Assembly: GCA_041395325.1 (NCBI GenBank)
Contig: JAWLAT010000008.1
Coordinates: forward strand, 55,102-119,101
Source: Lysobacterales bacterium
GTDB lineage: Bacteria; Pseudomonadota; Gammaproteobacteria; Xanthomonadales; SZUA-5
Direction: 5' to 3'
DNA: 64,000 nt
The first letter of the stretch is position 1; each line of letters starts with the position of its first letter. This document shows positions 18,069-19,798 of the stretch, in pieces. Both the position numbers and the translations under genes were made by a program. The notes under the pieces are model-generated. The model saw nothing but the letters and a program-made list of their open reading frames with translations. It was not told the DNA's origin and did not search any database.

Positions 18069-18356
18069 TCAGGCAGCTCGACGATTTTCTGAAGGCTCTC
18101 GAGGTTCTTCAGGAGCGTCGTCCTGGTCACCTTGATCCGGTTGGTCTGGATCCTTTGCCGGAAACACCAAACAGGTGAGTGTGGTGCTTGCGGCAAAGTG
18201 TGCGTTGCATGCGATCCGATCGCGGTTGGCGACGAGGTCCAATTCCTCAGATGACAGTCCTGCCAATGCCCCGGCAGTGGTCAGTTCGTTCGTAGAGGCA
18301 TCGCCGAGCGATGCGTCTGCGCCACACGTCTCGAGAAAAGCCATCAGCTTGTTCAT
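18069..18356 (-). CDS. Candidate split-borosin-type RiPP precursor peptide (95 aa)
   Basis: MNKLMAFLETCGADASLGDASTNELTTAGALAGLSSEELDLVANRDRIACNAHFAASTTLTCLVFPAKDPDQPDQGDQDDAPEEPREPSENRRAA. Its ATG overlaps the GNAT stop (ATGA at 18353-18356), and a GGGGGAAG Shine-Dalgarno lies just upstream. The leader layout resembles, from my memory, the recognition leader of the Shewanella split-borosin precursor. Confidence 0.6.
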   Translation of the reverse strand: MNKLMAFLETCGADASLGDASTNELTTAGALAGLSSEELDLVANRDRIACNAHFAASTTLTCLVFPAKDPDQPDQGDQDDAPEEPREPSENRRAA

Positions 18357-18994
18357 CTACTTCCCCCACTAGTGGATTTGCGAACACCAGGCGTCCAGCG
18401 ATCTGCCGCTACCGCCAAGCGCGACCAGAGCATAACCGCACCCAGTTCGGTTTCGGCGGTCTTGCCAGTAAAACCCATCAACCTTGCAACTCTGCACGCC
18501 GCAAGATTGTCAGCCTTGCAGCGCAATAGAAGCCTGCTGACGCCGAGCCTCTGAAGTTGATCAGCCAGTGCACGCATCCCCTCAACAGCCAACCCGTGGC
18601 CCTGAGCTTGGCTGGGTGCGATCACTCCCATCTCCCATTGAGAGCCATCAGGGTCCCAACGGTCTGCACTATAAATTGCCGCTAGGCGTCCACTCTCACG
18701 GACCTCCGCGGCGACTCTCAGGCTCTGGAAGGGCAGTTGCCTTCGATCCCAAGGAAGTGACTGAAAAGGGTCACTGAATTTCCTGAGAGATGATCGGATT
18801 CTCGGCGGGTATTGATTGGCTCGAAGTGCCCACGTGAAGTGTTCGCGAGCGGTTGCTTCGGATAGCGGTTCTCCGATCTTCCTCATGACGCGAGGGTCCC
18901 GATAGAGCGCGATGTACTCCGACTCGTGCTCGGAAGCCAACAGTCGCAGCGTTAGGCGACGCGTATGGGAAAGCTCAATGACGCTTGTAGTCAC
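18353..18994 (-). CDS. GNAT-family N-acetyltransferase (RimJ/RimL, Acetyltransf_3-like)
   Basis: N-terminal TRRLTLRLL...YRDPRVMRKIG pattern and acetyl-CoA motif QAQGHGLAVEG. GTG start 3 nt after the methyltransferase TAG stop; its stop overlaps the precursor ATG. Confidence 0.8.
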   Translation of the reverse strand: MTTSVIELSHTRRLTLRLLASEHESEYIALYRDPRVMRKIGEPLSEATAREHFTWALRANQYPPRIRSSLRKFSDPFQSLPWDRRQLPFQSLRVAAEVRESGRLAAIYSADRWDPDGSQWEMGVIAPSQAQGHGLAVEGMRALADQLQRLGVSRLLLRCKADNLAACRVARLMGFTGKTAETELGAVMLWSRLAVAADRWTPGVRKSTSGGSR

Positions 18995-18997
18995 GTA

Positions 18998-19798
18998 CTA
19001 GGCCAGGTTGCCAGTTGCTGCTGCAAGCATGGATCGCATCCGCTCATCCACCCGCATCGCTCGACCTGGCGGAATCACCAGCGTGTCGGCCAGGTCCACG
19101 TCAGCCTCGGTCAGGTCCGACAAGGCGATCCACCGAAGCTTCGCCTGCTCCAGCGGAAAGGTGGCGGCGCGATAGAGGCAGACCTGATGGTCGCCCGGGT
19201 AGTCGCGTAGCAGCACTTCGACCAGCAGAGCGCGTTGCGCGCGGCCTGTTGAAAGTTGCGCAAGGGAGCGGTCCCCGACCACGCCGACTTGCCACAGGAT
19301 CAGCAGGGCGGCAGGGTCAAAGCGGCGTTGGTAGAGCAGGAACTGCGTGGCTTCGTAGTGCTGGCAGCCGCAGTCTCCCGGATCCAGGCCGAGATCGGCA
19401 TAGAGGCAGTCTTCGGCCGACACGCCCGGCTCCAGTCGGGCGCGGATACCTTCGGCACGGGCGCGGCGGATGGCCTCATGCGGCACCCAGGCGAATACGC
19501 CGGGATGACCGTAGAAGGCGCCACAGACGCGCTGGCCGTCGCGCGCCGCGGTCAGCATCTCCTCGACCATGCCCTCATAACCGATCCGCCGCGAACGACC
19601 TTCCTGATAATGCGGCTGCAGACTGATGAAACGCTGGCTGAGCTCTTCCACCCAGCGTTCCACCAGGCCATCGGAAAAATTGCCGTAGACCACATCGGCG
19701 TGCTCGATTTCGTGCCGGGCTCGCGGCGTCAGATGCCCGCCCAGCAGCATACCGGTACCGACGCAGACCAGCTGTCCGTGGCGGGTGACTTCGCTCAT
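18998..19798 (-). CDS. SAM-dependent TP_methylase-fold enzyme of the borosin-type peptide alpha-N-methyltransferase kind
   Basis: From ATG 19798: [17 protein letters not shown]..., ADVVY, [68 protein letters not shown]. This motif set and order match what I recall for OphMA/SonM-type peptide N-methyltransferases rather than corrin/uroporphyrinogen or rRNA methylases. Confidence 0.78.
   Translation of the reverse strand: [266 protein letters not shown]

Follow-up and report, generated by a model that had tools for sequence, protein, structure and literature searches.

Borosins carry N-methylated backbone amides, and the described pathways differ in how the methyltransferase and its substrate are encoded. 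In the fungal representatives (OphMA, dbOphMA, MroMA; types I-III), a single autocatalytic polypeptide combines the methyltransferase, the clasp or borosin-binding domain (BBD) and the core, and a prolyl oligopeptidase macrocyclase serves in maturation. The commonest bacterial type is the type IV split borosin, with Xanthomonadales contributing 22.5% of the hits; an acetyltransferase domain (PF13302) occurs in ~26% of the split borosin biosynthetic gene clusters (BGCs) and GGDEF, the most frequent accessory domain, in ~56% (Imani et al., 10.1101/2021.12.24.474128). Fusions of a BBD with a GNAT domain have already been noted in the literature. Here, we analyzed a 64-kb window (the whole stretch of DNA under study, from contig JAWLAT010000008.1 of a Lysobacterales bacterium) and describe the locus at 16260-19798 on its minus strand. 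With a probability of roughly 90%, estimated from homology, this locus represents a four-gene type IV split borosin operon encoding a SonM-like methyltransferase (MT), a PF13302 GNAT, a SonA/SamA1-like precursor and a TPR/GGDEF cyclase.

The closest described systems both come from Shewanella. The son BGC of Shewanella oneidensis MR-1 consists of sonM, sonA, the GGDEF gene SO1480 and the cation efflux gene SO1481, and the methylated residues are retained in its product, shewanellamide A (PMC10549244); structures of SonM and SonA together with residue roles are available (PMC8429565). In the sam BGC of Shewanella amazonensis (SamM1, SamA1, SamP/shewasin A), the precursor SamA1 is N-methylated at Phe52, and the pepsin-like SamP cuts the Phe53/Pro54 bond only if this methylation is present, which releases an anionic C-terminal peptide. 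The species detected in vivo after release is this unmethylated anionic tail, and the role of a PF13302 acetyltransferase encoded in the same BGC was explicitly left open (bioRxiv 10.1101/2024.01.09.574750).

Gene order and assignment of the methyltransferase

Re-reading of the open reading frames (ORFs) and junctions across the window confirmed three ORFs packed on the minus strand at 18069-19798, as described in a first-pass annotation, including the TAG-3 nt-GTG junction, the ATGA overlap and a 171-nt upstream gap. That annotation, however, took the operon to comprise three genes and overlooked a GGDEF gene, which starts 12 nt past the precursor stop in the same direction and is conserved together with the other three. 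The four genes are as follows:

18998-19798, minus strand: SonM-like stand-alone borosin peptide backbone alpha-N-methyltransferase (MT), 266 aa from the ATG at 19798
18353-18994, minus strand: PF13302 (RimJ/RimL-type) GNAT N-acetyltransferase, 213 aa, GTG start
18069-18356, minus strand: SonA/SamA1-type borosin precursor, 95 aa
16260-18056, minus strand: membrane diguanylate cyclase (TPR/GGDEF), the fourth gene, 598 aa

The MT stop codon (TAG, 19000-18998) is separated by 3 nt (TAC) from the GTG start of the GNAT gene at 18994, and the ATGA at 18356-18353 is common to the GNAT stop and the precursor start. Directly before the precursor ATG there is a purine-rich GGGGGAAG. For the MT, GAGGA is located ~10 nt upstream of the ATG at 19798; an in-frame GTG at 19828, which would give 276 aa, is a less likely start.

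In a search against the PDB, the best match of the MT was SonM (1.9e-66, 227 bits), and the fungal borosin enzymes dbOphMA, MroMA and OphMA were matched at about 1e-43 to 1e-39, whereas the best tetrapyrrole methylase, a uroporphyrin-III methylase, reached 9e-4 and 22 bits. Identity to SonM amounts to 45% over 241 residues, with an alignment covering residues 8-252. The SonM residues that organise catalysis and the clamps (Y58, R67, Y71, Y93, F99 and W166; Miller et al., PMC8429565) are all kept, as Y64, R70, Y74, Y96, F102 and W169, respectively. Furthermore, the translation contains YGHPGVF and EDCLYAD, corresponding to the YGHP and DCL(F/Y)AD motifs used to detect borosin clusters (Imani et al., 10.1101/2021.12.24.474128), and all four motifs quoted in the first-pass annotation are present in it. 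The homologous MT domain, these motifs and the catalytic Tyr and Arg are shared with the fungal fused borosins; in contrast to the latter, enzyme and substrate are here encoded by separate genes. The size of the MT fits the range of stand-alone type IV enzymes (~210-310 aa), and it is without a fused BBD, core or extra domain.

Based on these homologies, the MT is a borosin alpha-N-methyltransferase of the SonM/OphMA group and not a tetrapyrrole or rRNA methylase, which agrees with its earlier placement. An ordinary tetrapyrrole (CobA/CysG) or rRNA (RsmI/YabN-like) methylase next to a spurious small ORF would fit the generic Pfam family, since TP_methylase (4.4e-23) was the single Pfam domain found, as well as weak NCBIfam matches to the YabN, CysG and CobJ models, all of them sub-threshold (<=32 bits against cut-offs of 185-525). 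The PDB ranking and the conserved borosin catalytic residues refute this reading, as does the small ORF itself, whose conservation, synteny and homology to SonA and SamA1 are described below; we regard its remaining probability as negligible.

Precursor peptide and acetyltransferase

As a single sequence, the 95-aa precursor gave no match in Pfam, NCBIfam or the PDB. It is nevertheless no chance ORF: homologous small ORFs of the same position and architecture recur in five independent genome loci and several metagenome contigs. SonA was reached only with a profile; built from the alignment of 10 syntenic homologues, it placed SonA chains at the first 7 ranks among PDB entries (E 2.8e-4 to 1.5e-3, BBD positions 1-61), and at E<0.01 only SonA chains were matched in the PDB. 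Comparison with SamA1 by hhalign (SamA1 sequence from the supplement of bioRxiv 10.1101/2024.01.09.574750) gave a probability of 95.6% and an E value of 1.1e-8, aligning C62-L-V-F-P-A-K-D to C50-V-F-F-P-A-E-D. Judged by these alignments, the ORF is a SonA/SamA1-type borosin precursor. The first-pass annotation had likewise proposed it as the substrate peptide, and the homology of MT and precursor supports the split borosin cluster with a separately encoded precursor that it suggested. Within the precursor gene, we distinguish:

18183-18356, minus strand: BBD (leader), precursor residues ~1-58, aligned to positions 1-58/61 of the SonA BBD
18159-18176, minus strand: predicted methylation/cleavage site T61-C62-L63-V64-F65-P66, from the hhalign register to SamA1
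18072-18161, minus strand: acidic Pro-rich C-terminal tail, residues 66-95 (10 D/E, 6 P, 4 K/R), ending RRAA

The alignment of the 10 homologues showed a conserved N-terminal motif, M-N-x-x-M-A-F-L-E-x-x-G-A-D-A, and, further downstream, a hydrophobic stretch, then Pro66, which is almost invariant, and finally the acidic Pro-rich tail. In an AlphaFold2 (AF2) model with a predicted local distance difference test (pLDDT) score of 66, five helices span residues 3-63 (H3-13, H15-18, H22-31, H36-43, H45-63) and are followed by a disordered tail; this predicted architecture matches the five-helix BBD of SonA. V64 is the predicted methylation site, as the equivalent of the N-methylated Phe52 of SamA1, and the F65/P66 bond, equivalent to Phe53/Pro54, is the predicted cut site. 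Equivalent acidic tails were found in the related loci L001, L002, L003, L004, L005, L006, L008, L009, L013 and L020, and also in SamA1, which releases PAEDEPEKEQQENEEEDEAPKA.

Compared to the son system, the locus has a similar stand-alone MT (~265 aa) with the same catalytic residues, a separate precursor with an N-terminal five-helix BBD, a GGDEF gene immediately downstream and no protease in the cluster. Unlike the son BGC, it carries a PF13302 GNAT between MT and precursor and no cation efflux gene. The precursors differ as well: SonA (71 aa) ends shortly after the methylated L63/I65, whereas the 95-aa precursor continues past the hydrophobic core with Pro and a 30-residue acidic tail. 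With the sam BGC, the locus shares the succession of BBD, C-x-x-F-P-A-x-D and anionic tail as well as a PF13302 acetyltransferase, but a PF00026 peptidase is absent from the 64-kb window and from the flanks of the Lysobacterales relatives. The gene order and the TPR-GGDEF linkage were established in the present analysis.

Nearly all precursors end with -AA or -AG (RRAA, RKAA, SAAA, RLAG, KLAG, QEAA, RLAA; 18069-18083 in the window, and L001, L002-L004, L006, L009, L013 and L020), and these ends resemble the C-terminal Ala-Ala of ssrA-type degrons. According to the literature, ssrA/SmpB genes lie near some borosin BGCs, and SamA1 is trimmed in vivo by its last three residues. The 64-kb window contains neither a tmRNA nor a tRNA gene.

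The product of the second gene matched Pfam Acetyltransf_3 (PF13302) at 1.6e-15, above the gathering score. Its acetyl-CoA motif is intact (Q130-G-H-G-L-A135), and E121, G123, G132/G134 and N163 are conserved among borosin-linked homologues, with E121, G123, G134 and N163 being invariant. The AF2 model (pLDDT 84) shows a canonical GNAT fold with an insertion loop at residues 62-89. RimL (1s7l) was the top structural neighbour (3e-10), near-tied with SpeG, AAC(6')-Ib and a lasso-peptide acetyltransferase (~1e-9 to 1e-10). Fold, acetyl-CoA motif and the conserved Glu and Asn are thus common to this enzyme and the RimL/RimJ/MccE-type PF13302 GNATs; it differs from them in an identity of only ~15-17%, in the extra 62-89 loop with its LPW motif and in being genetically dedicated to borosin clusters. 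The insertion (~28-40 residues long and placed between helix 2 and strand 2; residues 62-89, window 18728-18811), in which the model is less confident (pLDDT 74-79), keeps its L-P-W motif in the Lysobacterales GNATs of both classes described below (G1 and G2); the GNATs of L002, L003 and L006 are shorter and lack the insertion. It could be a peptide-docking element.

A word-indexed protein search returned just three homologues each for peptide and GNAT. Most of eight further GNAT homologues with sampled contigs adjoin a borosin MT. A drop from 135 to 65 bits in a profile search, with the low scorers P0011, P0012 and P0015 in unrelated contexts, first suggested a small, sharply bounded clade of borosin-linked GNATs. 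This idea was dropped after an exhaustive profile search, in which 12 representatives passed E<=1e-30 and 1,450 passed E<=1e-10 along a continuous score gradient into PF13302; homologues sampled at 165, 128, 121, 116, 102 and 90 bits, spanning the full score range of the top 150, were all located in borosin-type contexts. By this measure, the borosin-linked GNAT clade is large and without a sharp boundary.

In L001, L013/L014 and L021/L022, duplication has affected the GNAT and peptide genes jointly, as one cassette, and the tandem copies lie at 6807-8899 in L001, 4829-6957 in L013 and 478-2790 in L021. The GNATs fall into two classes. Class G1 enzymes from different genomes share 53% identity, compared to 36-41% with class G2, and they pair with VFAA-repeat peptides that have no acidic tail and share 76% identity among themselves; class G2 enzymes, including the one in the window, pair with peptides of the type VFPAKDP plus acidic tail. 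This pairing, seen in only two or three genomes, would fit a model in which each GNAT acts on the variable C-terminal region of the neighbouring peptide. The peptide of the first cassette in relatives, with its repeated VFAA motifs (e.g. CAVFAAKLVPVVFAANPVPCVFAAHG) and without acidic tail, points to a precursor with several cores that belongs to another class of product.

Conserved unit and genomic neighbourhood

A scan of one genome per species yielded eight MT relatives, namely from Lysobacterales, Frateuria and Dyella metagenome-assembled genomes (58-85% identity) as well as from Alishewanella, Aliikangiella and a Phormidium. Together with the metagenome contigs, the related loci show the following arrangements:

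L001-L004, L006 (genome loci): order MT-GNAT-peptide-GGDEF
L009-L012, L013/L014, L020, L023, L025 (metagenome contigs): order MT-GNAT-peptide-GGDEF
L005 (Dyella), L008 (Phormidium): without GNAT
L024, L027: GNAT upstream of MT

A survey of this kind had been proposed in the first-pass annotation. An adjacent small ORF is indeed conserved and the MT-GNAT-peptide order recurs, but the GNAT is missing in L005 and L008 and moved in L024 and L027, so that an obligatory coupling of the GNAT does not hold. Nor is its presence in such a cluster undescribed, given the published frequency of PF13302 in split borosin BGCs (10.1101/2021.12.24.474128) and its occurrence in the sam BGC (10.1101/2024.01.09.574750).

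The product of the fourth gene matched Pfam GGDEF (1.2e-36) and TPR_12 (1.8e-7). An N-terminal signal or transmembrane segment (~10-30) is followed by a TPR-like region of ~355 aa, which is presumably periplasmic, a transmembrane segment at 388-410 and the GGDEF domain with an intact GGEEF at residue 499. Homologues of this cyclase (29-67% identity) follow the precursor in L001-L006, and one lies on the opposite strand in L007; GGDEF genes are also located after the precursor in L009-L013, L020, L023, L025 and L027.

Two of the more distant loci have a different layout. L007 (Aliikangiella marina, 1127-7198) contains two MT copies on opposite strands and a GGDEF gene, and its 144-aa precursor comprises at least five tandem repeats of KALIITPKAQASH. 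In L008 (Phormidium pseudopriestleyi, 1497-4463), the MT (45% identity) precedes two TPR-repeat proteins and then an 86-aa BBD-type precursor ending ILAVACIDPVDDPLPDPDPPSDPDDSE, and the flank contains neither a GNAT nor a GGDEF gene. The design of a hydrophobic core with an acidic Pro-rich tail thus reaches well beyond gammaproteobacteria.

The cluster borders had been left open in the first-pass annotation, which mentioned PAT-like GNAT and GrpB genes upstream. Synteny now sets them: the conserved unit is MT-GNAT-peptide-GGDEF (16260-19798), as judged by gene order, because no other neighbour in the window recurs in related loci. The S9 peptidase, the ArsN1b-type acetyltransferase, GrpB and MAPEG were found in none of the related loci examined, and ArsN1b and GrpB were consequently rejected as cluster members. 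Between the MT and the upstream ArsN-like gene lie 171 nt (19799-19969), in which a consensus scan pointed to one candidate promoter:

19850-19879, minus strand: CTGACG-18-TAGAAT, a promoter-like site between the MT and the ArsN-like gene

The same scan gave two sites in 5.4 kb versus 0.6 expected; the evidence for the site is weak. The upstream PAT-like GNAT (19970-20635, minus strand) passes the NCBIfam equivalog cut-off for the arsinothricin-resistance N-acetyltransferase ArsN1 family B (215.8 bits versus 210). Its true start is probably an internal ATG near 20524, because the NCBIfam model begins at residue 45; this start would abolish the apparent 107-nt overlap with the GrpB gene (20529-21011, minus strand).

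Over 17150-19000, from the GNAT through the precursor into the 5' half of the GGDEF gene, the GC content dips to ~0.58, compared to 0.65 elsewhere. At third codon positions (GC3), the values are 0.57 for the GNAT, 0.54 for the precursor and 0.75 for the MT. Recent horizontal transfer was rejected as the cause, since relatives have the same pattern (L001: MT 0.79, GNATs 0.68-0.69, peptides 0.58-0.69); the low GC looks like a trait of these fast-evolving genes.

Proposed order of events and significance

The following order of events would account for the conserved unit. The MT, a homodimer in the case of SonM, would bind the five-helix BBD of the 95-aa precursor and, with S-adenosylmethionine, methylate at least one backbone amide in C62-L-V-F65, around V64, if the chemistry of its homologues applies. 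Following the residue-level alignment to SamA1, the methylated site would license a cut at F65/P66 by a protease encoded elsewhere, in relatives a pepsin-like A1 peptidase, and a 30-residue anionic Pro-rich peptide (PAKDPDQ...RRAA) would be released. The RimL-like GNAT may then acetylate an amine on one of the pathway's peptides, with the newly exposed alpha-amine as the most plausible acceptor; this proposal draws on the family of its fold, on the tight coupling of the genes in translation and on GNAT and peptide classes being inherited together. Finally, the co-transcribed membrane GGDEF enzyme may tie the pathway to cyclic di-GMP (c-di-GMP) signalling. We consider a split borosin operon with these four steps probable as the best explanation overall, while the chances that events in this operon follow the sam-like order are, by analogy, evenly balanced.

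Several points weigh against this explanation. Its basis is the homology of the four proteins, the catalytic residues, the site correspondence to SamA1 and the gene order, from which methylation, cleavage and acetylation are all inferred, and the SamA1 data themselves come from a preprint. A Foldseek search with the precursor model (pLDDT 66) gave no significant match, with SonA chains at ranks 12 and 35 (E>5) and DsbA helices at the first rank at E ~3, a result that we do not count as contrary to the SonA assignment. The substrate of the GNAT cannot be deduced from its structure because the neighbours are generic and near-tied, the precursor family has no conserved Lys, and the predicted neo-N-terminus is Pro, an unusual acetyl acceptor. 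In addition, neither a motif search nor tblastn with the L007 peptidase revealed an A1 (two-DTG) peptidase in the 64-kb window, and no A1 peptidase or homologue was found in the flanks of L001-L006; a sam-like cleavage would therefore need a distal or different protease.

A PF00026 pepsin-like peptidase of 436 aa does flank the Aliikangiella locus L007 (4554-5861, minus strand), and another is present in L026, which fits the published link of A1 peptidases to borosin clusters; the literature also allows for a distal copy of the protease. Within the window, an S9/DPP-IV-like serine peptidase is encoded at 13515-15908 on the plus strand, convergent to the GGDEF gene (Peptidase_S9 3e-45, DPPIV_N 3e-19). 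It had been considered as the maturation protease in view of the conserved Pro66 and of the prolyl oligopeptidase employed by fungal borosins, and was rejected as a conserved component as it occurs in no related locus. L009 and L010 carry an M16 peptidase at the equivalent position, and an M13 peptidase lies downstream in L027.

Other outcomes can be considered for the same set of genes. As SonM is the nearest homologue of the MT with a solved structure, the product might, as in shewanellamide A (PMC10549244), be a short linear N-methylated segment of about T61-F65 plus flanks, with the tail as a discarded follower or solubility element and the GNAT capping the N-terminus of the methylated peptide. 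The class-1 peptides in L001 and L013, with VFAA repeats and no acidic tail, would agree with this, as they show that the tail is not universal. However, the peptide in the window aligns to SamA1 through CxxFPAxD, and what SamA1 releases in vivo is the unmethylated anionic tail; moreover, the acidic tail is kept from Lysobacterales to Alishewanella and a cyanobacterium, which argues for a function of the tail. We therefore rate a son-like product as rather unlikely. A purely intracellular regulatory device, in which the modified precursor or its fragments modulate the GGDEF cyclase or a proteolytic pathway and nothing is secreted, would explain why GGDEF is the most consistently linked gene (56% of BGCs; Imani et al., 10.1101/2021.12.24.474128), why the conserved unit contains no transporter or protease and why the precursor C-termini (AA/AG) are degron-like. 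It is improbable in view of the TPR-like sensory domain of the cyclase, which is predicted to be periplasmic while the precursor has no signal peptide, and of the detection of the SamA1 tail and shewanellamide A as discrete processed peptides.

The GNAT could also serve in self-protection or detoxification, as MccE/RimL does with microcin C, by inactivating the mature or processed peptide inside the producer; a role in self-protection had been mentioned in the first-pass annotation. Its membership in PF13302, the RimL/MccE family, and a PDB sequence match to MccE at 2.9e-4 are in line with such a role, but no antibiotic activity was found for the one characterised bacterial borosin (PMC10549244) and the conserved module contains no exporter; the co-segregation of GNAT and peptide classes and their duplication as cassettes fit tailoring or immunity alike. 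Altogether, we consider self-protection very improbable. Returning to the four-step pathway, a more specific version of its last steps is a long shot: GNAT-precursor pairs would be co-evolving cassettes in which the GNAT acetylates the Pro66 neo-N-terminus of the anionic peptide, set free only once backbone methylation has licensed the cut, and the acetylated anionic peptide would be the ligand of the periplasmic TPR domain of the GGDEF cyclase. If this were true, such operons would be signalling circuits leading from an autoinducer of the RiPP type (a peptide made on the ribosome and modified after translation) to c-di-GMP, and not antibiotic pathways.

In summary, the locus is a genuine split borosin operon of type IV, well formed and sam-like, all components of which match published descriptions, and both the acetyltransferase and the c-di-GMP cyclase are accessory genes already reported for split borosin clusters. 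It adds one more Lysobacterales case to the >1,500 catalogued split borosin clusters, and little is changed by the locus alone. With one MT, one GNAT, one sam-type precursor and one GGDEF gene within 3.5 kb, it nevertheless represents a compact test case for two questions recognised by the field, namely the role of PF13302 acetyltransferases in borosin pathways and the constant linkage to diguanylate cyclases. Experiments on both questions are sharpened by the duplication of GNAT-peptide cassettes and by GNAT classes that track peptide classes.

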